64,000 nucleotides of DNA from positions 2,048,001 through 2,112,000 of the forward strand of contig CBDCKW010000009.1 of the NCBI GenBank assembly GCA_965218435.1, in the 5' to 3' direction. The notes beneath the pieces were generated by a model. The model made no database searches. It saw only the letters and a program-made list of their open reading frames with translations, and was not told where the DNA came from. The position numbers and the translations under genes are program-made. This stretch comes from Truepera sp. Its GTDB lineage: Bacteria; Deinococcota; Deinococci; Deinococcales; Trueperaceae. Positions 6,729-22,724 of the stretch are shown here, one piece after another; position 1 is the first letter of the stretch, and every line of letters begins with the position of its first letter.

Positions 6729-7029
6729 TTAGTCTCCTAAACCTGTCTTCTTCAACCGGGGGGCATAAAGCAGTTCGGGCGTACGCGTAACTCGGCCTTT
6801 AGGCCAGCCTCCTTTCGATGTGCAAACGTTAGACATAAACAGCTTACGCCTATGACGCTTGCTTTTCCGCAATGGTCTCGTGGCCATTACGATAGTACAG
6901 CCTTTGGGGATTTGTCAAGTAGGCACCCTATATACGCTCTGGCTCATTACGGGGACAAAAGCTCGGGTCAGAGACCAAGGCTCAGGCAGGGTTAATCTCG
7001 GCAGGGGTAAAACCGGCGACGCTCACTGT

Positions 7030-7473
7030 AAGAGGACATGGGCACAGGTCGAAAGTAACTACAAGTTCCAAGCGCCTAAGACCAAAAGGAGCCGCCGTAA
7101 CCTCGAGCTACCCGAACTTGTAAAGCTTTCGCTCGAGCATAAAGCATTGCAACCTGTGGAGAGTGAGCTGATCTTCTCGACTGTAGACGGCACACCCTTA
7201 AGCGAGCGTAACGTCATCGTCCGGCACTTCAAACCGCTCTTAAAGGCCGCTGAGTTGCCTGACGCCTTTATAACTTGCGCCATACTCACGCGACGCTCTT
7301 AACTTATCGTCGGGACAAAGCCCAAAATCGCCAGCGAACGCTTGGGACACTCGAGCATCACCCTGACTTTGGACACCTACAGCCACGTACTACCGGGTAT
7401 GCAGCGCAAATCAGCGAGCAAACTTAACACCATGCTCTTTAATGATGCGGCAGAGGTTAGACCGTACAACTAA
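7030..7473 (+). pseudogene. Frameshifted C-terminal remnant of a tyrosine integrase
   Basis: Across two frameshifts: PKTKRSRR...LIFST..GTP...LRHTHATLL...ERLGHSSITLTLDTYSHVLPGMQ; N-terminus missing. Confidence 0.88.
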
Positions 7474-7563
7474 CCTAAAAAATAGACCGGCACATATGTG
7501 GCACACGCACACGAAAAAAGCACAGCCCGAATCCTCAGGCTGCGCCTCTCTTTTACGTCCCTC

Positions 7564-7620
7564 ACGGCTTTTCTTTGGTAGCGATGAAGAGACTTGAACT
7601 CTTGACCTCACGATTATGAG
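7564..7620. repeat. att site: displaced 3' part of tRNA(CAT), 57-bp direct repeat of 21208-21264
   Basis: acggcttttctttggtagcgatg...cacgattatgag identical at both ends; identity stops at the anticodon loop. Confidence 0.95.
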
Positions 7621-7744
7621 AAGTATATGAGCCCTAATGTATCGCACCATGCTCTGATGGGCTGTGATAGAAAGCCCGTTATAGGCGCATTTCTACCCTT
7701 TGCTCTGCCTCTCGTTCAATGTCTCATCACGCTAGGTAACGCGG

Positions 7745-7779
7745 CTGTAGGTGTAAATAATGTGTAACTCAGGTGCAGG
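7745..7779 (+). repeat. Putative integrase arm-type sites (left end)
   Basis: ctgtAGGTGTAAataATGTGTAActcAGGTGCAg; matches 21129-21154. Confidence 0.65.
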
Positions 7780-7853
7780 CTTTGGGGGGCGTTTACCCCG
7801 TTATGGACGCCGAGGCCATCACAAAACGTAGCGAAACATGGTAAAATTAGAGC

Positions 7854-8354
7854 ATGACGGCGGCGATACCTTACGACGAACTTACGCTTGACGAACTGCT
7901 CGAGCGTGTTGAGCGTATCGTCAGCCGCGCTGAACGGACGCTTACGAAGGGTAAGCCCCGCCGTCTATCCGCCGCCGAACTTGAGCGGGAAAACCGGATG
8001 CGTTCCGTGGTTTTTTGTGCCCCCAAGAATCTTTACTCAAAACGCTGGCAGTCTACTAGCAACTGGCAGGCTTCACTGCCTTCAGCCCTCGGCAGTTTGG
8101 GGACGATAAGGAACATGCGTAAGCTGAACCGCGCGGTTTTTGAGCTTACGCGCATGTTCGCTTGTTCAATACCAAAGGCGCTGTTACAAAAAGTTTTCGC
8201 GCTCATCTTATCGCTCGTTTTTGGTATTGGACTTGAGGACGATACCCCGGAACTGCCTGACGAGCACCGTGATATTGACGTTACACCGCGCCCCGAACCG
8301 CCGTTAAGCAGAATTCCTAAAGCTTTACCTAACGCTCCAAACGCACTGATTTAA
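7854..8354 (+). CDS. Hypothetical protein, first gene of the element
   Basis: 166-aa ORF; extended -10 TGgTAAAAT 6 nt before ATG (leaderless). Confidence 0.6.
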   Translation: MTAAIPYDELTLDELLERVERIVSRAERTLTKGKPRRLSAAELERENRMRSVVFCAPKNLYSKRWQSTSNWQASLPSALGSLGTIRNMRKLNRAVFELTRMFACSIPKALLQKVFALILSLVFGIGLEDDTPELPDEHRDIDVTPRPEPPLSRIPKALPNAPNALI

Positions 8355-8409
8355 GTTTGCGCAGGTCACACCTGCTGGCTTAAATCTCTACCGTGATTTA
8401 TAAATCACG
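8348..8409. promoter_or_regulatory. Hairpin plus perfect 18-bp palindrome upstream of the xis-like gene
   Basis: GATTTAAG..GCAGGT-cac-ACCTGC..CTTAAATC and CGTGATTTATAAATCACG (8392-8409). Confidence 0.55.
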
Positions 8410-8426
8410 TGCGTTTGGAGTTTTTT

Positions 8427-8630
8427 ATGACAATGGAACCGAAGGGCTCGAGCCCTTTTTACAGTTATCCCGAGCTTTGGGAAGCGAACGAGAAAAAAAT
8501 CGGCATCAACACGCTGAGGGCTTGGGGACGTTCAAAGAAGCTGAAGACCGTAAGGGTCGGCAGAAAAATCCTAGTGCCCAAAAGCGAACTTGACCGCCTT
8601 GTGGAAATCGCCGGAGGCGACGACTTATGA
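8427..8630 (+). CDS. Excisionase/MerR-like winged-HTH protein
   Basis: IGINTLRAW...LKTVRVGRKILVPKSELDRL; GGAG RBS. Confidence 0.8.
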   Translation: MTMEPKGSSPFYSYPELWEANEKKIGINTLRAWGRSKKLKTVRVGRKILVPKSELDRLVEIAGGDDL

Positions 8631-8824
8631 AAAATCCCCATCTCGGGCAAGATGGGGACGCGGCGATTCGTAAGGAAAGTTTATCACAAGTCGTTATCTG
8701 CCCCTTTGCTCCCGAATGCTTAAAAAAATGGATTCACCTTGTCGGTACAGAAACGGCAGACTGCCAAAACTTCAGCCGTGCAGACATGGCGAGGATTTTG
8801 GCGGGGGTCGCTGGTGGACGCTAA
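8627..8824 (+). CDS. Small hypothetical protein
   Basis: ATGA overlap with the upstream gene; overlaps the primase start. Confidence 0.5.
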   Translation: MKNPHLGQDGDAAIRKESLSQVVICPFAPECLKKWIHLVGTETADCQNFSRADMARILAGVAGGR

Positions 8825-11207
8825 CCTTACCGACCACCACCGCAAGATGCTCGAGACCGAAAGCGGTATCAGCCCTAAAGTCATAGAATCACGTGGCTAC
8901 CGCACTGTTACCGTCAAAGCCGACCTCGCTAAACTCGGCTTTGCCCTTAGTCAGCAAAGCGTTACGGCCCTGCTCATCCCGATTCACGACCCGACCGGGC
9001 ACGTTGGAACCTACCAACTGAGGCCCGACAAACCGCGCACGATTAAAGGTCAGGGCAAAGAACGGATAGTTAAATACGAGACCGTCAAAGGCTCGAGCCT
9101 CACCCTTGACGTAAACCCGTTGTCACTCAACAAACTAGGCGACCCGGCCACGCCTTTGTGTATCACCGAGGGCTCAAAAAAGGTTGACGCACTCGCGTCT
9201 CGCGGCCTCTGTGCGCTTGGGCTTATGGGCGTGTGGGGCTGGAGGGGGACGAATCCGAACGGCGGCAAAACTGCGCTGCCTGCCTGGGAAAACGTAGCTT
9301 TGAACGGGCGCACCGTTTACCTTTGCTTTGATTCGGATGTCACGACGAAGCGTGAAGTTTACGCTGCGCTCGAGCGGCTTAAAGCGTTCTTAGAGTCTCG
9401 TGGTGCATCCGTCCGCATCATCTATCTACCCGACGATGGCGACGCGAAAACTGGCGTTGACGACTACCTCGTTCAGGGTCACGACGTTGGCGACCTCTTG
9501 AAACTCGCTTCAGATGAGCTTAAGCCACCACCCCACGATAACGTAAGCTCAGATGAAATCGTCATCAACCGTCAGGTCAAAGAGGTTGTGACCGACATCT
9601 CGACTCGGCTTAAAGGCTTAGAGCTTAACGGGCAACCGCTCATTTATTCACGTGGCGACGGGCTCTTGGTGGAGATGCGCGAAGGTTTCGAGCTGAGAGA
9701 AATCACTAAGCCCGACAGTCTTAAGGCATTACTACATGACCACCTCGAGCCCGTCTTGGAAAAGACGCTGCAAAGCGGTGAGGTCATCACGACCCCTTCA
9801 GTTTTCAGCGCGAATCACACGGCGCTGCTGACGCGCAAGACTGCAGAGTTTCCGCCGATTAAAGCAGTGAGCGACATCCCTTTGATGCTCCCAAATGGGG
9901 CGATTTTAAGCGAGCCTGGATACCACCGAGAGCACGAGCATTTTCTCAACACTGCCGGGATAACAGTTGAACTTATGCCCTGGCAAGAGGCTCGAGCCCT
10001 ATTCCTGGAAACGTTTAACGAGTTTTCTTACCAAGCGCCGAAAGCTGGGTTCACAGCTACTTTGGCGTTCGTTTTGCAGGCCTTTTTGATGCTGGTCATA
10101 GACGACCACACACCCTTATACGCGATACTCGGCTCCAGACGCGCCGGGAGCGGAACGGGTAAGGGTTACCTACTCGACTGCATTTACCGGATTCAGCGGG
10201 GCCGTCCTTATACTCACGACGGCGCGATGCCCGCAACAGATGAAGAGATGGGTAAAGTCCTCTTCTCAGCTTTAAGTGAAGGTGCCTCGCACATCATCTT
10301 TGATGATATTGACCACCTGAAACACCGTCAGCTTATGGCAGCCATCACGAGCCGGACGTACAAGGGCCGCATCCTGGGGGTAAGTCAACGCCATGAGGTG
10401 AGCACGGCTGTCACCTGGGCCGTATCGGGCAACGCGCCCGATATTCACCGGGACTTTTATAGGCGCGTCATCCCGATTTATCTCGGTGTCGGTAAAGCCC
10501 GCGCATGGGAGCGTTCCTATACCCGGCCTGACCTCAACCGCTACATCCTAGAAAACCGGAACCTTTACATCTCGGCTGCACTCAGCATCTTGGAACACTG
10601 GCGTTCTCTTGGAATGCCTCTCTCTACGGGGGTCATACGGGGGTTTGACCGGTGGTCTGCGGTGATGGGCGGGGTACTCGAGTCCATCGGGCTAACGCAC
10701 CTTTTAGAAGCCCGTGTTGGTCTCGACACGCTTATAGAGGTGGACAACTCAGACTTAGACCTATTGATAGACGCTTGGCAAGGGTGCAGCTTAGCGGACA
10801 AAAAACTGAAGGGCAAAGACCTCTTGAACCTTGCCGCAGGGCATGAGCTATTCACTGAACTTTATGAAGGGCGAACAGAGGCAGCCGGTGCCGGTGAGTT
10901 GGGCAAGTTCTTGAAACCCTACGCGAACGATGTTTTTAAGGGTCACTATCTGCGCCGTGAGTTTGATTCGGACTCTAAGACCTGGCGCTACTTTTTAGAG
11001 CCGGTGCCCGATGCACCGAAACTACTTTCCGAGGTGTTTAATTTCTCAGCTCTTGAAACTTCGGCTGAACACCCCCGTGAGACCCCCGTAAACCTAGAAG
11101 GCGGTGAGGTTACGGGGGTGCTACGGGGGTCTGGCGGCGAAGTTTCAAGAGACAAAGATAATGACGAACTCTCCTACCTTGTCGGTAGTACGGAGGGTGA
11201 GCTGTGA
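8814..11207 (+). CDS. DUF3854 (TOPRIM-like) primase fused to a P-loop NTPase/helicase; replication protein
   Basis: ITEGSKK..GVWGW, CFDSD, KTGVDDYL; Walker A GSGTGKG, Walker B IIFDD; GTG start at 8814 inferred. Confidence 0.85.
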   Translation: MDANLTDHHRKMLETESGISPKVIESRGYRTVTVKADLAKLGFALSQQSVTALLIPIHDPTGHVGTYQLRPDKPRTIKGQGKERIVKYETVKGSSLTLDVNPLSLNKLGDPATPLCITEGSKKVDALASRGLCALGLMGVWGWRGTNPNGGKTALPAWENVALNGRTVYLCFDSDVTTKREVYAALERLKAFLESRGASVRIIYLPDDGDAKTGVDDYLVQGHDVGDLLKLASDELKPPPHDNVSSDEIVINRQVKEVVTDISTRLKGLELNGQPLIYSRGDGLLVEMREGFELREITKPDSLKALLHDHLEPVLEKTLQSGEVITTPSVFSANHTALLTRKTAEFPPIKAVSDIPLMLPNGAILSEPGYHREHEHFLNTAGITVELMPWQEARALFLETFNEFSYQAPKAGFTATLAFVLQAFLMLVIDDHTPLYAILGSRRAGSGTGKGYLLDCIYRIQRGRPYTHDGAMPATDEEMGKVLFSALSEGASHIIFDDIDHLKHRQLMAAITSRTYKGRILGVSQRHEVSTAVTWAVSGNAPDIHRDFYRRVIPIYLGVGKARAWERSYTRPDLNRYILENRNLYISAALSILEHWRSLGMPLSTGVIRGFDRWSAVMGGVLESIGLTHLLEARVGLDTLIEVDNSDLDLLIDAWQGCSLADKKLKGKDLLNLAAGHELFTELYEGRTEAAGAGELGKFLKPYANDVFKGHYLRREFDSDSKTWRYFLEPVPDAPKLLSEVFNFSALETSAEHPRETPVNLEGGEVTGVLRGSGGEVSRDKDNDELSYLVGSTEGEL
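10625..11151. repeat. Iteron pairs (ACGGGGGT) and ~100-bp palindrome; putative replication origin
   Basis: Pairs at 10625/10636, 11071/11082 (inverted), 11111/11122; 14-bp outer inverted repeat 11050-63/11138-51. Confidence 0.65.
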
Positions 11208-11572
11208 CCTTAAGAGAAAAGCTCGAGCATCAAGGGGTGACCCTTGCCCCTAAGCTCACCTACCAAAGTGCCGCGCCCCTAGACGCTGAAACACTCGCAC
11301 TACTCAAAACCCATAAAGACGACCTGCTGAGAGACCTTATCGTCTCGACCGGATACAGCACCCCGGAACGTCTGCCCTGGCAGTTGGAACGCCTCATCAG
11401 CGCCGCGTGTGCCGACGCGCTGCCCCAAGGCACGGTCACACTACCCTCTGGACTCGTGCCCGACCTTAATCGTTATGTTTTAGGTTGGGGTTGCAGCTAT
11501 CTTGTCAGCGACCGTATAGAAGCCGAAAAGCGTCTCTGGGAAGCCTACCGAGCGTGGCAGGGGGTCAACTGA
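11204..11572 (+). CDS. Hypothetical protein
   Basis: GTGA overlap with the primase gene, GGAGG RBS. Confidence 0.7.
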   Translation: MTLREKLEHQGVTLAPKLTYQSAAPLDAETLALLKTHKDDLLRDLIVSTGYSTPERLPWQLERLISAACADALPQGTVTLPSGLVPDLNRYVLGWGCSYLVSDRIEAEKRLWEAYRAWQGVN

Positions 11573-11573
11573 G

Positions 11574-11804
11574 ATGCCCCGCAAAACACTTCCGGCACAA
11601 CCGCCGCTCTTCCCTAAACGGACGATTACGCCGATTAAAGAAGGTGACGCCCTAGATTTCGCCGACCTTGCACCCTACCTTTACCGCTGTCGGTGCGGAC
11701 ACCGTGCCGAAACCCGTAAGCCTTTACCGGCTGTGACCTGCTCAAAATGCGGCGCTGCAATGCCGCTCGACTCTGAAGCCTCAGCCCACTTACGAAAGGA
11801 TTGA
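11574..11804 (+). CDS. Small zinc-ribbon protein
   Basis: CRCGH...CSKC; tightly packed in the operon. Confidence 0.6.
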   Translation: MPRKTLPAQPPLFPKRTITPIKEGDALDFADLAPYLYRCRCGHRAETRKPLPAVTCSKCGAAMPLDSEASAHLRKD

Positions 11805-12244
11805 CCATGACCGACATTCATAATCTCCATTATAAACTCTCCGAAGCGACCGCCGAATTGACGCAGATTCGGGAACGCCGCACTACTCTCGAGGCTGAAC
11901 TTGCCACCCTCACGCCGCTGGAAACCGAGCTGAGCAATCGGGCTACATCCTTAACGGCTGAACTCCAGCGCCTCGAGCCACCCGCCCCGCGTCCTCAAGA
12001 CGTTGAACGCCTTGCGAGGCTGACCGAAGCCTTGCGTTCTAAGCTCTCTGAAGCCGACCGCCGTTCACCGACCGTTCAACGGGTCAGGGCTAGTCTCGAG
12101 CGTCTCACCGACGAAAGCGTGACCGTCTCCGACCGCTTAAGCCTCGCCTTATCCCTGCTTGACGACCTTAAGAATCACTATCAGCTCGACCGTCGACTTT
12201 GGGATAAAGCTGAAGGTCACAACGCTGCTCAAAGGGGTCGCTAA
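11801..12244 (+). CDS. Coiled-coil hypothetical protein
   Basis: Heptad-rich L/E sequence; AAGGA RBS. Confidence 0.65.
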   Translation: MTMTDIHNLHYKLSEATAELTQIRERRTTLEAELATLTPLETELSNRATSLTAELQRLEPPAPRPQDVERLARLTEALRSKLSEADRRSPTVQRVRASLERLTDESVTVSDRLSLALSLLDDLKNHYQLDRRLWDKAEGHNAAQRGR

Positions 12245-12246
12245 TC

Positions 12247-12729
12247 ATGCCCCGTGTTTGCACTATCTGTAGCCACGCTGAACGCGATTCTGTTGACCTC
12301 CTCTTGCTCGAGGGGGCGTCAATACGCGCCATAGCGCGACAGTTTTCACTGAGCAAAGATGCGCTTTCACGCCATAAAGAGAGTCATCTGCCCGGACAAC
12401 TTGCACGGGCTCATGAGGCGAGCGAAGCCGTCAGCGCCGGTACGCTTTTAGACCGGTTGAGGCAGATAACCAGCGAGACTCACGCCGTCTTAAAAGCATC
12501 GAAGCAGGGTAAAAATCCCGAGCTTTCCTTGAAAGCAATCGCTCGACTTGAACGTCAGCTCGAGCTTGAAGCCCGGATGTTGGGAGAGCTTCAGGACAGC
12601 GCCACCACGACGATAAATGTTTACAGCACCCCGGAATGGCTCGTTTTGAGGTCTACCATCCTGAGCGCCTTGACACCTTTTCCAGACGCGGCGAAGGCTG
12701 TAGGAGCGGCCTTGAATGAACATAGTTGA
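12247..12729 (+). CDS. Zn-finger/HTH protein, putative terminase small subunit
   Basis: CTICSH, HTH SIRAIARQFSLSKDALSRH, helical C-terminus; directly upstream of and overlapping the TerL ATPase gene. Confidence 0.65.
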   Translation: MPRVCTICSHAERDSVDLLLLEGASIRAIARQFSLSKDALSRHKESHLPGQLARAHEASEAVSAGTLLDRLRQITSETHAVLKASKQGKNPELSLKAIARLERQLELEARMLGELQDSATTTINVYSTPEWLVLRSTILSALTPFPDAAKAVGAALNEHS

Positions 12730-13477
12730 CGATTTGAGATTTGCCTTAGACCCGGCTGTTTTTGCACTCGAGGCGCTAGGTTTAAGGCTAGACCCGTGGC
12801 AACGCGAGGCAGTCAGCTCAGCTTCAAAACGCGACCTTTTTAACTGCGCACGTCAATCTGGAAAATCAACCGGGGCGGCGGTAATCGCTCTGCATGAGGC
12901 TTTGTACAAACCGGGTTCACTTACCCTGCTTATCTCACCTTCACAGCGGCAATCATCGGAATTATTCCGCAAGGTCACAGAACTTCGGGAACTGCTACCG
13001 ACCGCACCGGAATTGACAGAGGACAACAAGCTCAGCTTGACGATTCAAGGCGGCGGTAGAGTCCTCTCCCTACCCGGTTCCGAGCAAACGATTCGGGGCT
13101 TCTCAGGTGCAACCTTAGCGGTACTGGACGAAGCAAGCCGCATACCTGACGAGTTGTACTTCAGCGTCCGGCCCATGCTTGCAACCCGTCAGGGGCGCAT
13201 GATTCTGATGAGCACACCTTTTGGGAAAAGAGGCTTTTTTTGGGCTGAATGGTCTGGAATCTCCCCCTGGAACCGGGTAGAAATCCCGGCTTCAGCCGTG
13301 CCGAGAATTACCCCGGAGTTTCTAGCGGAGGAAAAGGCGAGCCTGGGCGATTGGTGGTTTCGCCAAGAATACGGCTGTCAATTTTTGGAATCTACCGATT
13401 CGGTATTCTCCCATGACTCGGTGATGAACGCGCTCGACGATAGCGTCAAACCCTTGTTTGGAGACTCCCATGCTTGA
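12716..13477 (+). CDS. Terminase large subunit, stand-alone ATPase domain
   Basis: Q-motif DPWQ, Walker A ARQSGKST, Walker B AVLDEA, motif III STP, FRQEYGCQF. Confidence 0.9.
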   Translation: MNIVDDLRFALDPAVFALEALGLRLDPWQREAVSSASKRDLFNCARQSGKSTGAAVIALHEALYKPGSLTLLISPSQRQSSELFRKVTELRELLPTAPELTEDNKLSLTIQGGGRVLSLPGSEQTIRGFSGATLAVLDEASRIPDELYFSVRPMLATRQGRMILMSTPFGKRGFFWAEWSGISPWNRVEIPASAVPRITPEFLAEEKASLGDWWFRQEYGCQFLESTDSVFSHDSVMNALDDSVKPLFGDSHA

Positions 13478-14180
13478 ACCGACTGCTAAGACAGCCTCTA
13501 CCCCTGTAACCTTACAGACCCGCGCCCCTGTCTACCTTTTAGGCTGCGACTTAGGTCAGGCTCAAGACTTTACGGCGCTCACGGTGCTCGAGCAAAGCTT
13601 CATAGATACCGGGAAAACCGAAAGCTACGGCCTACCGTCCCCTACGATTAGAGGGCGTCCGCTGCGGCCCATGCCGACCCGCCCGGTCTACCAACGCCTT
13701 TACGCCGCCCGTCACCTCGAGCGTCTACCCAAAAACACGAGCTACCCCAAACAGGTTGAGCGAGTCGCTGAGCTTTACGAATCCCTTACCGCGATGAACG
13801 GCGTAAGACCTCACCTGATTGTGGACGCGACCGGCGTAGGTGCTGCTGTCGTTGATTTACTGCGGCTTGCCAGACTGAACCCTATCGCGGTCACGATTAC
13901 CGCAGGTGACGCGACCTCTTCAGATGGTGACAGCTTCAGAGTCCCCAAGAAAGACCTCGTGGCGACGATAGCGGTGCTCTTACAGTCCGAACGGTTAAAG
14001 GTTGCCAAAGCCTTACCCGACGCCCAAACCCTTATAGATGAACTGCTGGCGTTCAAAGCTCATATCAATCAGCGGGGTCATGCAAGCTTTGGAAACGATG
14101 TTGGGAGCTGGAGAGAAGCGCCGCATGATGACCTTGTGCTGAGCGTGGCACTGGCGTGCTGGTATGGCGAGAGTAGGTGA
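13470..14180 (+). CDS. Terminase large subunit, stand-alone RNase H-like nuclease domain
   Basis: GCDLG..QDFTA, IVDATGVG, HDDLVLSVALA; own GGAG RBS at 13460. Confidence 0.85.
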   Translation: MLEPTAKTASTPVTLQTRAPVYLLGCDLGQAQDFTALTVLEQSFIDTGKTESYGLPSPTIRGRPLRPMPTRPVYQRLYAARHLERLPKNTSYPKQVERVAELYESLTAMNGVRPHLIVDATGVGAAVVDLLRLARLNPIAVTITAGDATSSDGDSFRVPKKDLVATIAVLLQSERLKVAKALPDAQTLIDELLAFKAHINQRGHASFGNDVGSWREAPHDDLVLSVALACWYGESR

Positions 14181-14294
14181 CGCAAAACTTACGCGAGAGC
14201 TCGAGGCACGACTCATCCGCAGCACTCAGCACACGACAGGCGAGCTGCCAACGGTTCACAATGACACCTCTCAGGCCTCGAGCAGTCCTAACCC

Positions 14295-14331
14295 GACCCG
14301 AAGGGGAGATAGCACCACTCCCCTTCGGGTC
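14295..14331. terminator. Perfect 14-bp hairpin between convergent units
   Basis: GACCCGAAGGGGAG-9nt-CTCCCCTTCGGGTC. Confidence 0.55.
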
Positions 14332-14363
14332 ACACCTTTACATTCGATTAGTGGACTAGCGTG

Positions 14364-14798
14364 CTAGGTCGCTTCAAAGTATTCGTCTAGAACAATGGTT
14401 TTCAAAGCTATCAAGGTATCCGCGATTATTAGGTGGTGGCGTTGTTGAGATGCCGACCCAAATTGCTTTTTTAAGAAGTCGGTGCACAAATCCGATTTCG
14501 TTCTAAAAGCCTTCGCGCTACTGGCTTCGATAGCCAAGCTTAAAATTCTTTGAGTCTCTCGACCAAACTGAATACTGAAGCCCAACTTATCCTGATAGAC
14601 GTGCCCTGCACGTTCTTGTGTGTCGTACACGTAATCAACCTTTAGGATGTCGCTATCTATCCTCGCCTCCGCATTCTCAGGCAGATAGATATGTGACAGC
14701 GTCCGAATCTCATACTGTCGTTTTCCTAAAAGCGGGTTTGCGTCCGATGTTGCGTGCCTTCCACCGAACGATAGCGGCAGCTTTTGCGTCTCGGTCAC
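14364..14798 (-). CDS. Hypothetical protein, partner of the 2TM-GAF-like gene
   Basis: 144-aa ORF 9 nt downstream of the upstream gene, GGAG RBS. Confidence 0.65.
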   Translation of the reverse strand: MTETQKLPLSFGGRHATSDANPLLGKRQYEIRTLSHIYLPENAEARIDSDILKVDYVYDTQERAGHVYQDKLGFSIQFGRETQRILSLAIEASSAKAFRTKSDLCTDFLKKQFGSASQQRHHLIIADTLIALKTIVLDEYFEAT

Positions 14799-14807
14799 GG
14801 GCGGCTC

Positions 14808-15662
14808 CTAAAGGGTTCGATTTAACATTGTAGCGTAGTCGTCAATCCTTCTTTGTACGCTTGGCTTATCAAAAGGACAACGTTCCTGAACGCTGTCGAT
14901 AACGAGTACCCCAACGCGGGCGCTCGTTTTTGGGTTGACTAACGGTACAGCATGAAAGTGCCGAGCGATGACATGAAGCCGTTTCACAGTAGCTGGCGTT
15001 GAATAGGTTTCAAGTAAATAGGTATGGACTTGAGCAGGCATCGGCCCGTCGAGATGCAGAGCAGAAAGGTCGAGGGCGCGGATGTCAGGCAAGTCGCGTT
15101 TTGTGACTACATCGCCTGTTTGCATGACATGAGAAGCGACGCTCTCGCAATCCTCTCTTGTTGCAGGGTTGTAATGGAAAAATGTACCCGAGTTATTGTA
15201 CTCGGTTCCTATTCTCTGAGTGATGTGGACAAACCGATACTGAAAAATCTTACGCGGCTTCATCCGCGTGCTTTTCTTGCGCCCTCTAGCTCGCCGATTA
15301 CACGTCATAATGAAGACCTGAACCCATATATATCGGGCCATCCACCAATTTGCTTTTCTAAAAATCGTTATGCGAAGTTCAGTTTTTTCATTGTCGAATA
15401 GCTCGGAGCGCATATCCTCTAAAATAGCCTCTCGAATTCTCCGCAGTTTTCCACGGGGTTCAGCGAAAAAGCCGCCCCAACTATTGATTATTACGGACAC
15501 AGTTATTAGAGCCGCAATTATCCACCATTTATGCGTAAAGGCGAAATCATTAAGCGCCTGCTGTATCGGGTCAGGGTACTTAGCAGGTTTGACCTGCGCA
15601 AAAAATGCTGTGGCGATAGTTACAAGAGTAAGTATGACGACAAGCCAAAGGGGACGACGCAT
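14808..15662 (-). CDS. 2TM protein with C-terminal GAF-like domain (candidate defence protein)
   Basis: Two N-terminal TM helices; ELRITIFR, FHAVPLV...VGVLVIDS GAF-like strands; start at 15662 inferred. Confidence 0.65.
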   Translation of the reverse strand: MRRPLWLVVILTLVTIATAFFAQVKPAKYPDPIQQALNDFAFTHKWWIIAALITVSVIINSWGGFFAEPRGKLRRIREAILEDMRSELFDNEKTELRITIFRKANWWMARYIWVQVFIMTCNRRARGRKKSTRMKPRKIFQYRFVHITQRIGTEYNNSGTFFHYNPATREDCESVASHVMQTGDVVTKRDLPDIRALDLSALHLDGPMPAQVHTYLLETYSTPATVKRLHVIARHFHAVPLVNPKTSARVGVLVIDSVQERCPFDKPSVQRRIDDYATMLNRTL

Positions 15663-15790
15663 ATAAAGTTCGTTACCACTATACCTTAACTCTTCTAACA
15701 TGACGTAAACAGACCTTAGTTCCATTAAAAGAGTGCTTATACACCGTTTTGGTGTTAATTCCTTGTACAACAACATGGTGTAATAACGTT

Positions 15791-16027
15791 ATGAATAGAC
15801 AAGTACGTAGTGCTGCCCGCCAAGCCGTTTCGGGGCAGGGGCTTACCCAAGATAAGCTCGCCAAGCGTGCGGGGCTGTCGCAGCAAGCGGTAAGCCGCAT
15901 CCTCAACAACGACCGTACGGGCAACCCAGATTCTTGGGATAGAATCCTCGACGCCCTCGACCTAAAACTCGCCGCGATACCAAAGAACGCAGACATCGAA
16001 CAACTCTTCGACAGGAAAGGGGAATAA
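15791..16027 (+). CDS. XRE/Cro-type HTH regulator
   Basis: LTQDKLAKRAGLSQQAVSRILN. Confidence 0.85.
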   Translation: MNRQVRSAARQAVSGQGLTQDKLAKRAGLSQQAVSRILNNDRTGNPDSWDRILDALDLKLAAIPKNADIEQLFDRKGE

Positions 16028-16029
16028 AT

Positions 16030-16773
16030 ATGGCACGACGGCGCACAAGCAAACGGGCAAAAAATGAGGGCTCAGTCTTCGAGCTACCAAATGGCACATG
16101 GCGGGGCAAGGTCACGACCGGTTATGACGACGAAGGTAAGTAAAAGTTCCGTTGGGTCTCAGGTAAAACGCAGGGTGAGGCGCTGGCTAAAGTAGCGGAG
16201 ATAAAGCAGCGGCTTGTGAGCGGCACCTATACCGATACTAAGCTCACGGTAGCGGAATATCTTGAACGGTGGCTAGAGGAGAAGAAGCGCACGCTAAAAG
16301 CCTCTACGCTGGAACAGTACGAAAGTTGCATCAACTGTTCAATCGTGCCGCTAATCGGTAAGGTCAAACTCGACAAGCTCACACCTTTACAGGTGCAAAA
16401 CCTTGTGAACGGGATACACGACGTTTCAGGAGCCGCTCGAGCTGCAAAGTGTCGCACTGTCCTCTTCAGCGCCTATAAACAGGCGATTCGCTGGCAACTC
16501 GTGACCCGGAACCCGGTAGAGGCAACCGACCCGGTAAAGGAACCGCATCGGGAGATGACCTTATGGGAGCCGGAACAAGCGGCGCGGTTTCTCGACACCG
16601 CCCGGTCACACCGGCTGTTCGCGTTCTTTTACCTGAGCATGGCGACCGGCCTACGCCGTGGGGAGCTGCTAGGTCTGCGTTGGGTTGATATAGAGGGGAA
16701 CCTGCTACACGTCAAGCAAACACTCGTTAAGGTTGGGAGTAAGCTTATCCTCTCAACACCGAAAACGCGCTAA
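16030..16773 (+). pseudogene. Tyrosine integrase pseudogene (internal TAA at 16141, truncated after PKTR)
   Basis: NEGSVFE...GTYTDTKLTVAEYLERW...TGLRRGELLGLRW; close paralog of 19932-21125. Confidence 0.92.
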
Positions 16774-16836
16774 GGCTCGAGCCAGTAGCCTTACTTAAAG
16801 GAAAACACTTGAGCAAACATATAGAGAGAGGATTAG

Positions 16837-17709
16837 ATGACGATTTCAGAAGCGTTTGAAACGTTTTTAAGGAATCTCGAGGTTAAAAATCAAGACGACA
16901 TCCGCTTGCGTTACCGAAACATCACTAAAAGTGTAAACCGGGAATTCAGAGGTTCTGACTCGGAAACTGAGAACAGTTTATATCTTGGCTCTTACGCTAG
17001 AAACACTGCCATTAACGGCTTCAGCGACCTAGACATGGCTGTTATTTTGCCAGAGGCTGAGAAGGAGCGAGTCGAGAGCATCTACACCTATCCTCAGAGC
17101 GCGCTCCTAAGAAGTGTAAAGACGGCTTTGGAAAAAACCTACCCGCGAACTGAGATGCGGGCGGACGGACAAGTAGTAGTAGTGCTGTTTAGCGACGGGA
17201 TGCAGATTGAGGTTGTCCCGTTCATAGAACGGTCAAGCTCGCGTGGCTTCTACTTCCCGGACACGCACGACGACGGCTCCTGGAAAGAAACCGACCCAAA
17301 AGGCGAGCAAGAAACGTTTTTCGACCTAAGCCGGATTGCGAATGGAAACGCTGTAAAAATAGGCCGCATTATGAGGGCTTGGCGCAGGAAGCACAATGTA
17401 CCTATTAGCGGTATCCTATTAGATACCTTTATAACCCGGTTTTTGATTGAAAACCATTATGGGTTTGGTTCGTTTTATATGTGTGATTGGATTTGCCGAG
17501 ATTTTTTTCGTTACTTGTCGGAATTGCCGAAGCGGGGAGCATGGTCATCGCCGCGACACACTTACATGATAAAAGAGAAAGGAGATTTCCGACCCTCGGC
17601 TCGTGAGGCTTACAACATCACCCAAGAGGTTAAGAGTTCAATCGAATTTGACTTTGATGATTGCTGGGAATGGAGACGTATTTTCGGTGACGATTTCCCA
17701 CTCACCTAA
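16837..17709 (+). CDS. SMODS / CD-NTase-like nucleotidyltransferase
   Basis: GSYARNTAI..SDLDM, DGQVVVV, IEVVP, FPDTHDDGSWKETDP, WRRIFG. Confidence 0.88.
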   Translation: MTISEAFETFLRNLEVKNQDDIRLRYRNITKSVNREFRGSDSETENSLYLGSYARNTAINGFSDLDMAVILPEAEKERVESIYTYPQSALLRSVKTALEKTYPRTEMRADGQVVVVLFSDGMQIEVVPFIERSSSRGFYFPDTHDDGSWKETDPKGEQETFFDLSRIANGNAVKIGRIMRAWRRKHNVPISGILLDTFITRFLIENHYGFGSFYMCDWICRDFFRYLSELPKRGAWSSPRHTYMIKEKGDFRPSAREAYNITQEVKSSIEFDFDDCWEWRRIFGDDFPLT

Positions 17710-18301
17710 CGACCACAACATGCTAGAAGCTCAGCTTCGTGAGGTCTACGGGCGCATCGTTTACACGCACAAGACCCACGAAAAGATGGCTGACCTCCTC
17801 ACGTCTAGATACAACGTGACTCAGTGGATTCAAACGATTTTGTCTGGCCTGACGACCACTAGCTTGCTAGTCGTCATATTTGGCAATTCGGAGATGGGCG
17901 CTGTTATCGCAGCCTTTCTTTCGGCCTTTCTATTCATGGTCAACCTTTATCTACAGAACAATAATCTAGGCCAAAGAGTCGAGCGGCATACGGAAGTCGC
18001 GGCGGTCTTATGGGGCATCCGGGAAAGCTATCTAACGCTCATCACCGACTTACTAACCCCTGTCCCAAACATTGATTACATCAAGGCGGAACGGGATAGG
18101 TTACAAGACATAAGTGAAAGGGTATTTCGCAACGCGCCGCGTACCAATGCAAAGGCATATAGGTTGGCTCAAAATGCCTTGAAAAATAATGAGGAACTTA
18201 CCTTCAGTGAAGACGAGCTCGACCTATTGTTGCCGGAAGAGTTGAGGAAAGGTAAGCGCAGAAAGAGGATGAGTAACAGCGACACTGAACAGCCCAGCTG
18301 A
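17687..18301 (+). CDS. SLATT-family 2TM effector
   Basis: QLREVYGRIVYTHKTHEK, two TM helices, LWGIRESYL, APRT; overlaps the NTase stop; GTG start inferred. Confidence 0.82.
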   Translation: MTISHSPNDHNMLEAQLREVYGRIVYTHKTHEKMADLLTSRYNVTQWIQTILSGLTTTSLLVVIFGNSEMGAVIAAFLSAFLFMVNLYLQNNNLGQRVERHTEVAAVLWGIRESYLTLITDLLTPVPNIDYIKAERDRLQDISERVFRNAPRTNAKAYRLAQNALKNNEELTFSEDELDLLLPEELRKGKRRKRMSNSDTEQPS

Positions 18302-18386
18302 TGAGTCATCACACTTAACGGCAAGTCTAGTAGTGGCGCTTGCAACCATACCTACTATGTTGAACAAACAAGCTAACGGAAGGTGT

Positions 18387-18410
18387 TAAAACCCCGGCGA
18401 ATACCGGGGC
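18387..18410 (-). terminator. Intrinsic terminator of the leftward small-gene operon
   Basis: CCCCGG-6nt-CCGGGG preceded by AAAA. Confidence 0.6.
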
Positions 18411-18430
18411 TACTTCGTTTTGCAAGCAGT

Positions 18431-18763
18431 TCAGGCCGCTTCTCTAAAGGGCTCGAGTGCCCTCATCTGATACCGGGCTAAATCCCACTCTAGCCGTGCT
18501 CCCTCATACGCGCATAGGGCCTCTGTCAGCGCGTCTTCAGCTTCAGCGAGCGCGGTGTACTCAGCACTCAGCTCGAGCCGTAGCTTAGCCGTCCGCTCCC
18601 GTTCATTCTTACCGTCTACCCCGGCGCACAGTTTCAGGGCTTCAGCGTGCTCGAGCGTCCGCTTGGCTTCAGCGTGAGCAGTGACCGAGCCGCACAGGTT
18701 GATTTGAGCATCCTCTAAACCGTTCTTAGCGCAGCGCAGTTGGGAGAGAAGAGTGGCGCTCAC
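18431..18763 (-). CDS. Phage-like coiled-coil hypothetical protein
   Basis: GVDGKNERERTAKL; GTGA overlap with the upstream gene. Confidence 0.6.
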   Translation of the reverse strand: MSATLLSQLRCAKNGLEDAQINLCGSVTAHAEAKRTLEHAEALKLCAGVDGKNERERTAKLRLELSAEYTALAEAEDALTEALCAYEGARLEWDLARYQMRALEPFREAA

Positions 18764-18951
18764 GCCGCCTCTCCCCAAAAATCATAGTCAGGTACTTCGT
18801 CTTGGATGATTGGAGGCAGTTCATCACCTGTGCCACCCGAAGGGTCGGTATCTGCCCCGTCGTCTTCAGCTGCCAACTCTGCGTAAAGCGCCTGTAAATC
18901 CTCTTCACGGTCGCTGTACATCTCGACATCTACAAAGTAGAAGGGGCTCAT
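18760..18951 (-). CDS. Small acidic hypothetical protein
   Basis: TAATG coupling upstream; ends in GEAA, which supplies the next RBS. Confidence 0.55.
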   Translation of the reverse strand: MSPFYFVDVEMYSDREEDLQALYAELAAEDDGADTDPSGGTGDELPPIIQDEVPDYDFWGEAA

Positions 18952-19157
18952 TACAGAGCCCGTCCCGCAACGCGTACCGCTGCTTTGATGGTGCTGTGCT
19001 TGGACACAAGGTTAAAAGCTGAGTCAAAAACCTCCCAGACCGTGCCCCAAGTTTGGAGGCAACCGACGACTTCAGCGCCGCGCATGAGGTCATACGCCTT
19101 AACGGGGGTGCGGTAGCTTGCGCCGTCTTGCTTGTGGAGGGTGATGGTATTGTTCAC
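18951..19157 (-). CDS. Small hypothetical protein, first gene of the leftward operon
   Basis: GGAG RBS; downstream of a near-consensus promoter. Confidence 0.6.
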   Translation of the reverse strand: MNNTITLHKQDGASYRTPVKAYDLMRGAEVVGCLQTWGTVWEVFDSAFNLVSKHSTIKAAVRVAGRAL

Positions 19158-19218
19158 TTTAGAACTCCGTTTCTAGTTAGAGGCTGTACTTTTCGAGGGT
19201 CTGCCTCTAACTGCCTTT

Positions 19219-19247
19219 AGTTTATCAGGTATCGGCTAAACTGTCAA
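19219..19247 (-). promoter_or_regulatory. Strong sigma70-type leftward promoter
   Basis: TTGACA-17bp-TAAACT with TG extension. Confidence 0.75.
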
Positions 19248-19285
19248 GCATGTACAGCTTAAGCTAAATGTGCTAAGCTACTAAT

Positions 19286-19624
19286 ATGAAATGGAAACTG
19301 AAAGACTACTTAGAGCAACACGACATCACCGCACATCAATTGGCCCTCGAGTCAAAGCTCAGTCTGAACAGTGTTTACCCGGCAGTCCGGGGGCAAGCCG
19401 AGCGTGTCAGTTTGGCAACGCTTGACCGGATGCTTACGGCGCTCGACAAGCTGACGGGTGAGCGGGCAGAGCTGGGGGATGTACTTGAGCGAGAAGATGA
19501 CGCTTATGAGTTTCCGGGTGAGGTTCCAGCGGACATCCGCGAACGAATAGAACGATTTGAACGGGGTGAAGTGAAGCTTATCCCAGCTGCGGATATTGCC
19601 GCCAAATACGGCGTCAAACGTTGA
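19286..19624 (+). CDS. Cro/C1 HTH repressor with antitoxin-like C-terminal tail
   Basis: WKLKDYLEQHDITAHQLA HTH; C-terminus IERFERGEVKLIPAADIAAKYG; overlaps relE. Confidence 0.8.
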   Translation: MKWKLKDYLEQHDITAHQLALESKLSLNSVYPAVRGQAERVSLATLDRMLTALDKLTGERAELGDVLEREDDAYEFPGEVPADIRERIERFERGEVKLIPAADIAAKYGVKR

Positions 19625-19929
19625 CTTATGAGGTCATCTTCACCGATGAGGTAGATAGAGACTTAGAGGCGATTACCGATGTACGAACCCGTAACGCAGT
19701 CATTCGTAAAGCTCTTGACCTCGACACCGAACCCGACAAGCAAGGAAAAACGCTAGGCGGCAATCTAGCAGCTTACCGGGTCGTCAGAGCCGCAGGGCAA
19801 CGCTACCGGGTGGTCTATCAGATAGCGAGTCTCGAGGGTGTGGTCACTGTGGTGGTGGTAGGTATCCGCAAAGAAGGCGACAAGAGAGACGTGTACCGAG
19901 TAGCGAGCAAACGGTTAGGAAAGGGGTAA
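19621..19929 (+). CDS. RelE/ParE family toxin
   Basis: YEVIFT, QGKTLGGNL..YR, QRYRVVYQI, VVGIRKEG. Confidence 0.85.
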   Translation: MTYEVIFTDEVDRDLEAITDVRTRNAVIRKALDLDTEPDKQGKTLGGNLAAYRVVRAAGQRYRVVYQIASLEGVVTVVVVGIRKEGDKRDVYRVASKRLGKG

Positions 19930-19931
19930 CG

Positions 19932-21125
19932 ATGCCAAGACGTAAGAGCACGAGACGCGGTAAGGGTGAGGGTTCTGTCTTTGAGTTTGAACGGAATTAC
20001 AAAAAGCAAGACGGCTCTATCGTCGTCCGTTCCGGCTGGGAGGGTAAGGTTACGGTCGGTTATGACGAAAACGGTAAGCAACGTTTCAAGAGCGTGTATG
20101 GCAAAACGCAGAATGAAGCTCTAGCTAAAATTGCTGAGATTAAACAGCGTCTTATGAACGGCACCTATTCAGATACCAAGTTGACGGTCGCCGAATACCT
20201 TGAGCAGTGGTTAAGAGAGAAAGAGCGCAGCGTCAAGGAACGAACAGCGATGCTCTACCGGGAACAAGCCGAGCGGTACGTTATCCGCAAGATAGGCAGT
20301 GTCAAGCTCGAGAAGCTCACGCCCTTACACCTTCAGCGGATGATTAGCGAACTCGCTGACGAAATCGGCGTCCCGACCGCGAACAAAGCCCGCACCCTGA
20401 TGTTCGCCGCGTTAAAGCAAGCGGTGCGGTGGCAGCTCATTCACCGGAACCCATGTGAAGCTGTCGCTAAGCTTAAAGAGACCCGTAAAGAGATGACGCT
20501 ATGGACGCCCGCCGAAACCTTGAAGTTCTTAGGAGCGGCCCGACCCCACCGTTTATACGCCGCGTTCTATCTGGCTGTGTTTGCCGGACTCCGTAGAGGT
20601 GAGCTGTTAGGGCTACGTTGGAAAGACCTCACCGGCCCCGTGCTGAGCGTCAAGCAATCCCTGACCGTCTTAGGCGGTACACCGCACTTCACAACACCCA
20701 AGACCCGTAAAGGTGAGCGGCACATCACCGTCTCCCCTGACGTGCTCGAGGTACTCGCACAGCACCGGCTGATTCAAGAGGCAGAGGCTAAAGCTTTAGG
20801 CGACGCCTGGACAGATTCCGGGCTCATCTTTGCAACTGAAGTTGGAACGCTCATTCACCCCCGGAACTTTGAACGCACATTCAAAGACCTGCTTAAGACT
20901 GCCGACGTAACGAAGGCCCGGTTGCACGACCTGAGACACTTGCACGTCTCGCTACTCGTTTCTAAAGGGTTTGACCCGCGTTCAATCGCCGACCGGGTAG
21001 GCCATACGAACCCGAGCTTCACAATGGACGTGTACAGCCATATGTTTGCAACGCAGAGAGCGCAGGCCGCTGTCGGCATGGCTGACCTACTCGGAACCGA
21101 CGCGAGACAGGAAAAACTGAATTAA
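19932..21125 (+). CDS. Tyrosine integrase (intact)
   Basis: GLRRGE, PKT, HDLRH, VGH, YSH catalytic set; N-terminal arm-binding domain; next to att. Confidence 0.95.
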   Translation: MPRRKSTRRGKGEGSVFEFERNYKKQDGSIVVRSGWEGKVTVGYDENGKQRFKSVYGKTQNEALAKIAEIKQRLMNGTYSDTKLTVAEYLEQWLREKERSVKERTAMLYREQAERYVIRKIGSVKLEKLTPLHLQRMISELADEIGVPTANKARTLMFAALKQAVRWQLIHRNPCEAVAKLKETRKEMTLWTPAETLKFLGAARPHRLYAAFYLAVFAGLRRGELLGLRWKDLTGPVLSVKQSLTVLGGTPHFTTPKTRKGERHITVSPDVLEVLAQHRLIQEAEAKALGDAWTDSGLIFATEVGTLIHPRNFERTFKDLLKTADVTKARLHDLRHLHVSLLVSKGFDPRSIADRVGHTNPSFTMDVYSHMFATQRAQAAVGMADLLGTDARQEKLN

Positions 21126-21128
21126 ACC

Positions 21129-21154
21129 CTGTAGGTGTAATTAAGGTGTAAACC
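21129..21154 (+). repeat. Putative integrase arm-type sites (right end)
   Basis: ctgtAGGTGTAAttaAGGTGTAAacc. Confidence 0.65.
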
Positions 21155-21167
21155 GGCACACAAGAGA

Positions 21168-21198
21168 AGCGCCCCACACTTAGCGGGGCGCTCTTTTT
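21168..21198. terminator. Hairpin between the integrase and the tRNA
   Basis: AGCGCCCC-9nt-GGGGCGCT-CTTTTT. Confidence 0.65.
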
Positions 21199-21219
21199 GC
21201 GTCTCTGACGGCTTTTCTT

Positions 21220-21296
21220 TGGTAGCGATGAAGAGACTTGAACTCTTGACCTCACGATTATGAGTCGTGCGCTCTAACCAGCTGAGCTACATCGCC
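21220..21296 (-). tRNA. tRNA with CAT anticodon (probably elongator tRNA-Met)
   Basis: GGCGATGTAGCTCAGCTGGTTAGAGCGCACGA-CTCATAA-TCGTGAGGTCAAGAGTTCAAGTCTCTTCATCGCTACCA. Confidence 0.95.
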
Positions 21297-21677: not shown

Positions 21678-22724
21678 ATGGACAGCCAGAGACAGAAGAG
21701 CCTAGAGACGACCCTCACACAGATCGAGAAACAGTTCGGCAAAGGGGCGATCATGCGCCTCGGCGACGACCGCACCATGTTAAGCCAAGGCGTCATCTCG
21801 ACCGGCTCGATGTCGGTTGACTTAGCCTTAGGCGTCGGGGGCGTCCCCCGTGGCCGCATCATCGAAGTCTATGGTCCCGAGTCCGGCGGCAAGACCACCT
21901 TAAGCTTACATATTATCGCCGAAGCGCAAAAAGCCGGGGGCGTGGCCGCGTTTGTCGACGCGGAACACGCCTTAGACCCCGGCTACGCCAAAGCCTTAGG
22001 CGTCGATACCGACGAGCTGTTAGTTTCCCAACCCGACACCGGCGAGCAAGCCTTAGAGATTACCGAACTGCTGGTAAGAAGTGGGGCGGTAGACGTTATC
22101 GTGGTTGACTCCGTAGCGGCGCTTGTCCCCAGGGCGGAGATCGAAGGCGAAATGGGCGACACCCACGTCGGCTTACAAGCCCGCTTGATGAGTCAAGCGT
22201 TGCGGAAGCTGACCGGGGTGTTATCCAAAAGTCACACCACGGCGATCTTTATCAACCAGATTCGGGAAAAGATCGGGGTGATGTACGGCAACCCCGAAAC
22301 GACCCCCGGAGGACGCGCGTTAAAGTTCTATTCGTCCGTGCGGATGGAAGTGCGGCGTAAAGGGGACGTCAAGTCGGGGACTGACAAAGTGGGCAACCAA
22401 ACGCGGATCAAAGTCACCAAGAACAAAGTCGCCCCGCCGTTTAAGGAAGCGGAAGTCGAGATTATGTTTGGCCGGGGGATTGACAAAGTGGGCGACCTGA
22501 TCAACATTGCTTCGGACCTAGACATCATCCAGAAGTCGGGTTCGTTTTACAAGTATGACGGCGTGACCATCGGCCAGGGTAAAGAAAAAGCTTCGGCTTA
22601 CCTCTTAGACCAACCCGGACTTATTGAGCAGATTAGGGAGAGGGTCGTAGGGGTCGTCAGTGGTAAGGGGGCCGAAGAAGATGAACCCGGCGTGCAGCAG
22701 AGCCCTATGGGTGAACTAGGCTAA
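21678..22724 (+). CDS. recA: Recombinase A
   Basis: [38 protein letters not shown]. Confidence 0.99.

Follow-up and report, generated by a model that had tools for sequence, protein, structure and literature searches.

The window analysed here, a stretch of 64,000 nucleotides from Truepera sp. (contig CBDCKW010000009.1, positions 2,048,001 to 2,112,000), contains a large terminase (TerL) whose two domains are encoded by separate genes within a small integrated island. TerL normally consists of one ATPase-nuclease polypeptide. Here, an open reading frame (ORF) for a stand-alone ATPase of 253 aa is followed on the same strand by an ORF for a stand-alone nuclease of 236 aa (coordinates in Table 1), which starts with an ATG at 13470, is read in the +1 frame relative to the ATPase, and shares its first 8 nt with the end of the ATPase ORF, stop codon included (ATGCTTGA). 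A GGAG sequence within the 3′ end of the ATPase gene, 6 nt 5′ of this ATG, provides the nuclease with a ribosome-binding site of its own, as the first-pass annotation of this DNA, made from the letters alone, had described. All ATPase motifs named in that annotation (Q motif, Walker A/B, STP) were located in the ORF: DPWQ at residue 26, ARQSGKS at 45, IRG at 126, VLDEAS at 136, STP at 166, and FRQEYGCQF at 215. The nuclease carries GCDLG (25), IVDATG (117), and HDD (219) and, by motif and profile comparison, its acidic residues D27, D119, and D220/221 constitute a metal-ligand triad of the RNase H type.

Both halves fall into recognizable families. The ATPase matches Terminase_6N (E 8e-11) and phrog_7579 (E 2e-61), an ATPase-only model of 239 positions, while the nuclease matches phrog_27743 (233 positions, E 2e-37) and, weakly and slightly below the cut-off, Terminase_6C (E 2e-4); no NCBIfam model matches either half. 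The family profiles find, respectively, the ATPase of P74-26 TerL (4ZNI, E 2e-19) and the nuclease of G20c TerL (5M1F, E 2e-10) in the PDB, the latter with the acidic triad aligned. In the profile alignment R127 of the ATPase stands at the position of P74-26 R139, reported as a trans-acting arginine finger (PMC5389665). Of the features of a large terminase, the ASCE-type ATPase is present, complete with its Q motif, Walker A/B, lid, and coupling motif, and so is the RNase H-fold nuclease; what departs from the type is that the domains are encoded in two ORFs and not in one polypeptide. Judging from its sequence, the pair would work like a terminase of the P74-26/G20c type, yet it is not a canonical member.

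The leader preceding GCDLG in the nuclease is 24 aa long, compared with a median of 8 in the 106 measurable proteins among the 120 nearest nucleases. The spacing from the first acidic motif to the RHLER strand is 56 aa vs. medians of 30.5–33 in the wider family, hence the insertion of about 25 aa is real; it is a trait of the subclade, with a median spacing of 56 in the 90 measurable nearest matches. The leader, the insertion, and the acidic motifs had all been recognized at first pass.

The junction is covered by one contig of run X1 (12200–14300) and one contig of run X2 (12430–14300), each with 0 differences from the window; these are two runs of one sample, possibly the source of the assembly itself. 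A relative of about 90% identity from a second study (runs X3, X4) covers 13038–14171, and the only indel listed for it near the junction is an in-frame 3-nt deletion at 13492. Thus, the segment around 13455–13480, which the first-pass annotation had singled out for checking, is identical in the X1 and X2 contigs and has no indel listed for this relative.

The split is a family trait. The family searches were seeded with the window pair, and therefore the locus counts given here describe the seeded family, not terminases at large. The best 120 ATPase homologues are all 232–284 aa long (62–91% identity; lengths up to 443 aa were searchable), and the best 120 nuclease homologues are all 138–260 aa long (up to 413 aa searchable), i.e., the nearest 120/120 proteins of each kind stand alone, and the homologues share the split, the point that the first-pass annotation had proposed to check. 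One-chain relatives, searched at 444–2000 aa, reach at best 61% identity, the next one 57%. From the 279 loci fetched, 243 distinct ones remained, of which 202 are split in order, 5 were called reversed (207 split in total), 19 were called fused, and 17 are uninformative. After correction, 17 loci are truly fused and four are really reversed; L031 and L135 were rejected as fused forms, being a broken copy and a frameshifted ATPase, respectively, and L208 as a reversed one, being a circular contig. The real rearrangements, with the order nuclease, small terminase (TerS), ATPase, are L008, L009, L219, and L226; a frameshift could not produce such an order. Two of the four come from methanogen bins. 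All three relative frames of the halves are used in the in-order split loci (126/58/18), and the gap between the domains ranges from −1 to 1607 bp.

Both genes are maintained by selection. Among 172 loci, Walker A is retained in 169, Walker B in 165, the arginine finger in 144, and the three nuclease acidic motifs in 157/160/170. The median ratio of nonsynonymous to synonymous substitution rates (dN/dS) over 22 independent close pairs is 0.10 for the ATPase and 0.15 for the nuclease, indicative of purifying selection; pairs of the window with its relatives are saturated or nearly so at silent sites. A Shine-Dalgarno sequence precedes the nuclease in 169/202 split loci, a count that is biased because the starts were chosen by Shine-Dalgarno score without a control. 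Of 301 genomes of the phylum, 12 have matches: in the host's family, 10/10 matches are short open frames (253–311 aa), while the five matches in another family are one-chain, four of 427–442 aa and one truncated where its contig stops. Genomes of the host's order also contain a TerL nearly identical to that of the Thermus phage Riverbug. With all three frames used, reversed orders, purifying selection, and a fixed break point (see below), the first-pass view of a pair that evolved as such rather than arose by a frameshift lesion is strongly supported, and we regard the two-gene large terminase as real, selected, and widespread with near certainty.

Some loci of the family deviate from the simple pair. 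A second, weak ATPase-like ORF lies beside the split pair in L196 (9313–9696, between ATPase and nuclease) and L132 (3837–4343). Seven long proteins (P0169, P0176, P0203, P0214, P0152, P0126, P0212) end directly after the ATPase tail; four of them contain PF14528, which probably marks inteins within the stand-alone ATPase gene.

The break point is fixed, since the ATPase extends at least 31 aa past the QEY motif of the lid in 187/187 measurable split loci. Within this tail F231 (97%), A239 (79%), P246 (76%), and L247 (76%) are conserved across 165 loci, and in the one-chain TerL of Riverbug the same stretch is the linker. The first-pass annotation correctly had the ATPase end after FRQEYGCQF plus a short tail, but that tail is not a minor remnant: it is conserved and probably functional. 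Multimer modelling, proposed in the same annotation, predicts the halves to be docked, with ATPase residues 227–248 packed on nuclease residues 79–82 and 164–197. The complex model scores 0.74 vs. 0.00 for the best control (the score mark was reached by 116/157 solved pairs and 2/215 mismatched pairs), contact agreement between runs is at least 81%, and the predicted local distance difference test (pLDDT) of the partner is at least 77. This score shows likeness, not binding, because resemblance to a solved one-chain TerL may by itself carry the two halves past the mark; the conservation of the tail is an argument for docking that is independent of the model. Altogether, the halves are predicted to re-associate through the ATPase tail, and we hold this with good confidence. 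The suggestion made at first pass that separate subunits could uncouple cutting from translocation names a possible state, but the evidence points to re-association: what was once the end of the linker invariably remains part of the ATPase, and the model predicts that this segment docks on the nuclease.

The split pair occurs in two kinds of genomic context. Portal or head genes accompany 73/207 split loci, with a named portal in 60; the phage-type loci are uncultured viral contigs, viewed up to 10 kb on each side. In 52 viral loci the portal lies at most 1.5 kb downstream of the nuclease, and seven portal families, one of them T7-like, are represented. Since the pair occupies the canonical slot directly before the portal, it is likely the motor of these viral loci. 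On the other hand, the 27 loci from sources other than IMG/VR with at least 3 kb of downstream sequence contain no recognized portal or head gene, and 20/27 have an integrase or primase. The 159 loci of at least 6 kb include nine circular contigs, eight of which (7–15 kb) have no portal or capsid match among 59 ORFs scanned; the ORF scan of the loci covered cluster representatives and large downstream singletons. The same capsid-less layout recurs on four complete plasmids, three from Salinibacter and one a Streptomyces record, with no portal or capsid match among the ORFs scanned. L195, circular and 9,929 bp long, combines a primase, a portal, and a major capsid protein with the split terminase. 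Tape-measure-like genes were found in split loci lacking portal and capsid genes (L157, L132, L156, L228, L252, L259, L270, L274, L140, L280, and L281); the list includes plasmids pSR11 and pSR14, and some of the matches are weak.

In several loci the nuclease gene is duplicated. Plasmid pSR31 has one ATPase, two clear nucleases, and a third, divergent candidate, and in L083 an extra nuclease paralogue has no catalytic motifs. Two nucleases are present in 5/87 non-phage vs. 0/72 phage loci, and the C-terminal tails of the paralogues differ. The difference in frequency is not significant (p = 0.064), and the proposal that the duplication is exclusive to capsid-less elements was rejected.

A single origin of the split is not evident from the trees. 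The ATPase trees, which are unrooted and weakly supported at depth, mix split and one-chain forms, with 16 changes over 278 rows (three of them still mislabelled) and 10 changes over 71 rows. In the nuclease tree (FastTree, 250 rows), one side of a branch with support 94 comprises 193 split rows, eight rows labelled as fused with a split-type nuclease, of which L135 is an artefact, and five fused rows of the Thermus type. Among 120 long homologues, seven are one-chain proteins with the same nuclease type. One of these one-chain proteins, P0121, nests among split relatives with support 96, the only well-placed case of re-fusion; because of this placement, re-fusion seems to occur. Among the split ATPases also lie one-chain TerLs whose nucleases are of visibly different type (the L062/L106, P0217/L091, and Thermus groups), a hint, from an unrooted and weakly supported ATPase tree, of domain exchange via the split state.

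In the window, the terminase genes are located inside a 13.6-kb island at tRNA-Met, bounded by a 70-nt direct repeat of the 3′ end of this tRNA (Table 1). No portal, capsid, protease, head-tail, or tail gene was recognized in or beside the island among 23 ORFs compared with Pfam and 12 with PHROGs.

Table 1. Features of the tRNA-Met island, with coordinates in the window and the evidence for each assignment (HTH, helix-turn-helix; TM, transmembrane segment).
Feature	Coordinates	Strand	Evidence
Attachment-site repeat, copy of the tRNA-Met 3′ part, left end of the island	7551..7620		70-nt direct repeat, 96% identical to 21195-21264, 13,644 bp apart
Excisionase/AlpA-like HTH regulator, 73 aa	8409..8630	+	HTH_17 E 6e-6, 26.8 bits vs. 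cut-off 27; TIGR01764 E 4e-5, below cut-off
Primase-like replication protein, 822 aa if read from the earliest possible start	8739..11207	+	DUF3854 E 2e-22; phrog_10537; primase phrog_16213
Three small co-oriented ORFs without assigned function, 122, 76, and 147 aa	11204..12244	+	Related ORFs elsewhere in the same genome
TerS-like protein, likely small terminase, 160 aa (CxxC, HTH, long helices)	12247..12729	+	Position; weak fold likeness
Stand-alone terminase ATPase, 253 aa (Q motif, Walker A/B, arginine finger R127, lid)	12716..13477	+	Family and PDB profile matches
C-terminal tail of the ATPase (residues 227-248), predicted docking segment for the nuclease	13394..13459	+	Complex-model interface; conservation
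GGAG ribosome-binding site of the nuclease	13460..13463	+	Sequence
Stand-alone RNase H-fold terminase nuclease, 236 aa, unusually short C-terminus	13470..14180	+	Family and PDB profile matches
XRE-type HTH gene and truncated second integrase	15749..16773	+	HTH_3 E 3e-9; Phage_int_SAM_3 E 1e-17 on a 185-aa ORF
Cargo: SMODS nucleotidyltransferase and SLATT_4 two-TM effector, a defence pair like the cyclic-oligonucleotide-based antiphage signalling system (CBASS)	16837..18301	+	PF18144 E 2e-40; PF18186 E 4e-60; CBASS cyclase models below cut-off
HTH antitoxin-like gene and ParE/RelE-family toxin	19286..19929	+	HTH_26 E 2e-5; ParE_toxin E 1e-6
Tyrosine integrase, 397 aa	19932..21125	+	PF00589 E 6e-18; PF14659 E 1e-11
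Attachment-site repeat 21195-21264 overlapping intact tRNA-Met 21220-21296, right end of the island	21195..21296	-	Repeat and tRNA calls

The TerS-like family encoded upstream of the ATPase is found in 110/243 loci, including 28 split phage loci, and precedes TerL in the phages Riverbug and MMP17. The best PDB fold match of the window protein is the TerS of Sf6, a weak one (E 0.32); its structure predicted from the single sequence has a pLDDT of 50, and its Atlas matches are unnamed clusters only.

Two relatives of the pair reside in the same genome. A second intact split pair, 61% identical, is located in an island that adjoins tRNA-Thr and also contains genes for integrase and primase, and a third, broken copy of the split terminase lies near tRNA-Trp. 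No excision or circle joint of the window island was found in the contigs, which drop rare forms, and a look for RNA records of the locus listed none. Contig depth over 7591–21237 is about half of that in the flanks in runs X1/X2 (36–44 vs. 70–77; 196–258 vs. ~427), with variant sites immediately outside; the drop is a weak hint that the island is present in only a part of the population, contig depth being no copy number. Repeated TACGGGGGT/ACCCCCGT motifs in inverted orientation occupy 10625–11151, in the 3′ end of the primase gene, with 42-nt arms at 11050–11091 and 11110–11151, and this region may be the replication origin of the island. Remnants of two further tyrosine integrases, at 6859–7302 (just outside the left attachment repeat) and 16216–16773 (in the island), suggest nested or serial integrations at the tRNA-Met site.

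Related material is scattered over the host genome (G000). Contig C8 consists of tandem repeats of a unit of about 10.5 kb that encodes a primase, has genes in common with the island, and gave no terminase match; contig C6 is also self-repeating. Further islands of the same gene pool, with integrase and toxin-antitoxin genes, are located on contig C9 near 778k, 999k, 2158k, and 2877k. C9 also has a second recA (1610300–1611301), whose protein is 99.7% identical over 334 residues to that encoded at 21678–22724 of the window.

The nearest well-described terminases are those of P74-26/G20c (4ZNI, 5M1F) and of Riverbug and MMP17 (Terminase_6N plus Terminase_6C), which share with the pair the ATPase motifs, the arginine finger, the lid, and the acidic triad. 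The Riverbug ATPase is 48.5% identical to that of the window and has the same TerS-like family upstream. However, the Riverbug and MMP17 TerLs are single chains of 415–417 aa with portal and capsid genes nearby, whereas in the window there are two genes, broken after the last helix of the linker. One-chain TerLs of this group reach 485 aa at the upper end. The window nuclease has no match among 50,697 cultured-phage records, and the nuclease of a relative matched 14 of them at no more than 34% identity, 13 being from Thermus/Meiothermus phages, with TerL-type or hypothetical annotations.

As an element, the island resembles the phage-inducible chromosomal islands (PICIs) in its integrase, candidate HTH regulator, primase, TerS-like gene, size of 13.6 kb, and defence cargo. 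The integrase with attachment repeats and the primase-replicase module of PICIs are present, and the candidate for the AlpA/MerR/Stl-type regulator is the HTH_17 protein, at 26.8 bits vs. a cut-off of 27. A PICI, however, borrows the helper TerL and has none of its own, whereas the island carries both TerL domains. TerL is listed as a component specific to capsid-forming PICIs (cf-PICIs) in the SatelliteFinder definitions (PMC10085698). Like the island with its TerS-like protein and split TerL, cf-PICIs have their own small and large terminase, but they also encode capsid, portal, protease, and head-tail proteins, none of which is found in the island; the relative L195 does look cf-PICI-like. 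The elements named EPIPs (PMC12822802) and VEIMEs (PMC9618062) are likewise small, helper-dependent, and equipped with TerS, but the text available for these two sources reports no large terminase on the element, whereas the island has one. EPIPs are described as carrying a tape-measure gene (PMC12822802), as do eight split loci and, by weak matches, Salinibacter pSR11 and pSR14, whereas the window island is without one.

The same two families, in the same gene order, exist as database records only, i.e., PHROG 7579 and PHROG 27743 and the RefSeq "terminase family protein" on Salinibacter ruber plasmids pSR11, pSR14, and pSR31, where the nuclease is labelled unknown or hypothetical. A plasmid "terminase" is mentioned in PMC6060240, whose available text does not note a split. 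In the main texts of the mostly open-access literature searched, neither a naturally two-gene TerL family nor a capsid-less element carrying one is described; the SatelliteFinder and VEIME tables could list such cases.

We propose, with somewhat better than even confidence and by analogy with the systems above, that the DNA of the capsid-less island is packaged into proheads of a helper phage by the two-chain motor together with the TerS-like protein. The island would excise and replicate with its own primase, and the TerS-like protein would select its DNA. The ATPase, with its arginine finger retained, would form a ring; its C-terminal tail is predicted to rejoin the halves, the far end acting as a non-covalent clasp on the nuclease; and the docked nuclease would cut the DNA and contact the portal of the helper. 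For an element that has TerS, ATPase, and nuclease but no head, self-packaging in a helper prohead, on the model of PICIs, would be the simplest scheme. A broader version, which we put forward tentatively and think rather doubtful as a whole, is that a widespread class of satellites brings a three-gene motor without a head, the detachable nuclease serving as a swappable portal adapter and the split state as an intermediate in the re-fusion of TerL ATPases with different nuclease families. Exchange or duplication of the nuclease gene might then adapt one ATPase ring to the portals of different helpers; the two-nuclease loci whose paralogues have different C-terminal tails (pSR31, L064, L219, L267) fit this view, their excess being not significant.

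Several observations weigh against packaging of the island by its own motor. When T4 gp17 was split at the linker, both activities were reportedly kept and translocation was abolished (PMC3012670), although an ATPase-borne hinge of which only the far end is a non-covalent clasp would be a way round this result. In the viral loci a second TerL may lie beyond the 10 kb viewed, and the ratio of phage to satellite loci is no frequency, because IMG/VR is enriched for virion genes. The likely identity of the TerS-like protein is drawn from its position and weak fold likeness. Searches of the host genome for a helper prophage with PF04860, PF05065, PF05133, and phrog_113 found none (phrog_113 matched no control either), and neither did a tblastn search with phage structural proteins. 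Finally, only 18 aa separate HDD from the end of the window nuclease, the second-shortest value in 193 loci, and TerL C-termini are reported to bind the portal (PMC13595956, PMC5389665), so that this copy may not dock on a portal.

The last point gives the strongest rival its footing, namely that the pair rejoins but only recognizes and cuts island DNA, passing the end to the helper TerL, or that the window pair is a partly decayed member of an otherwise functional family and no longer docks on a portal. The distance from HDD to the end is 20 aa or less in only 6/115 nearest nucleases (medians of relatives, 34–38), and the C-terminus is nearly absent not only in the window but also in the second genome copy (20 aa) and L006 (20 aa), whereas the 24 remaining clade members listed have 26–56 aa; the nuclease of the ~90% identical relative likewise stops within a few codons of its loose end at 14171, and the third genome copy is broken. 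Yet this copy retains an intact lid, arginine finger, and set of Walker motifs, and its short nuclease tail, which two copies only about 60% identical have in common, resembles a property of the lineage more than recent damage. Nor does the length of the nuclease tail discriminate between phages and satellites, for which it was tried and rejected (medians 36 in 55 satellite-like and 38 in 75 phage loci, p = 0.97). We judge this explanation unlikely, although it is the best of the alternatives to packaging in the helper's proheads.

Interference as the main role, with a solo ATPase stalling the TerL ring of the helper or a solo nuclease blocking its portal or degrading its DNA, is less likely still. 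It would suit the SMODS-SLATT defence cargo, the reported targeting of helper packaging by satellites (PMC11417361), and the extra nuclease paralogues of capsid-less elements, including the one without catalytic motifs in L083. But a poison would need neither three conserved catalytic sites nor a conserved partner-binding tail, the genes travel with the TerS-like gene in 110/243 loci, and the same pair stands directly before the portal, in the terminase slot, in 52 viral loci, because of which poisoning is not favoured as a general role. The first-pass idea of poisoning the helper's motor is thus not favoured for the family, where the catalytic residues are kept, and is possible for the window copy, whose nuclease is without the usual C-terminal tail.

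It is very improbable that an intron, a split intein, readthrough, or programmed frameshifting yields one polypeptide from the two ORFs. In favour of such a product, no stop interrupts the nuclease frame from 13428 onward, so that the ORFs could be joined by a +1 shift within the tail of the ATPase; moreover, seven of the 120 long homologues are one-chain with the same nuclease type, and a TerL split by an intron is reported in phage phD2B (PMC4246154). However, the overlap contains no slippery heptamer of the X-XXY-YYZ type, and the split loci use three relative frames, gaps of up to 1.6 kb, and, in four cases, a nuclease upstream of TerS. An intron or intein would not fit between ORFs that overlap by 8 nt, and no intron, intein, or homing endonuclease domain was matched in Pfam and PHROG scans of the window ORFs. 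In phD2B and in genes fractured by split inteins (PMC2677866), TerL also occupies two ORFs, but splicing to one chain and a homing endonuclease are proposed there, whereas the window ORFs overlap at the domain boundary and their order is swappable in relatives. The idea that the assembly is wrong, or that a one-chain terL has recently been frameshifted, has practically no chance of being right; it is ruled out by the stand-alone nearest homologues (the best fused relative is 61% identical), the identical contigs at the junction, and the 207 split loci.

A 2026 review presents TerL as two domains joined by a signal-transmitting linker and the regulation of the nuclease as a long-standing question (PMC13595956). 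The family reported here naturally goes without the covalent link and is found with podovirus-type and other portals; the link is thus likely dispensable if the break follows the docking tail. The split terminase offers a system in which to vary the stoichiometry of the nuclease, to swap nucleases, and to ask which domain grips the portal. Half-length "terminase" annotations in this two-gene family should not be counted as pseudogenes. The capsid-less elements that carry the pair form a probable class of satellites, ranging from bacteria to methanogens, that has been overlooked by the definitions of PICIs and cf-PICIs.

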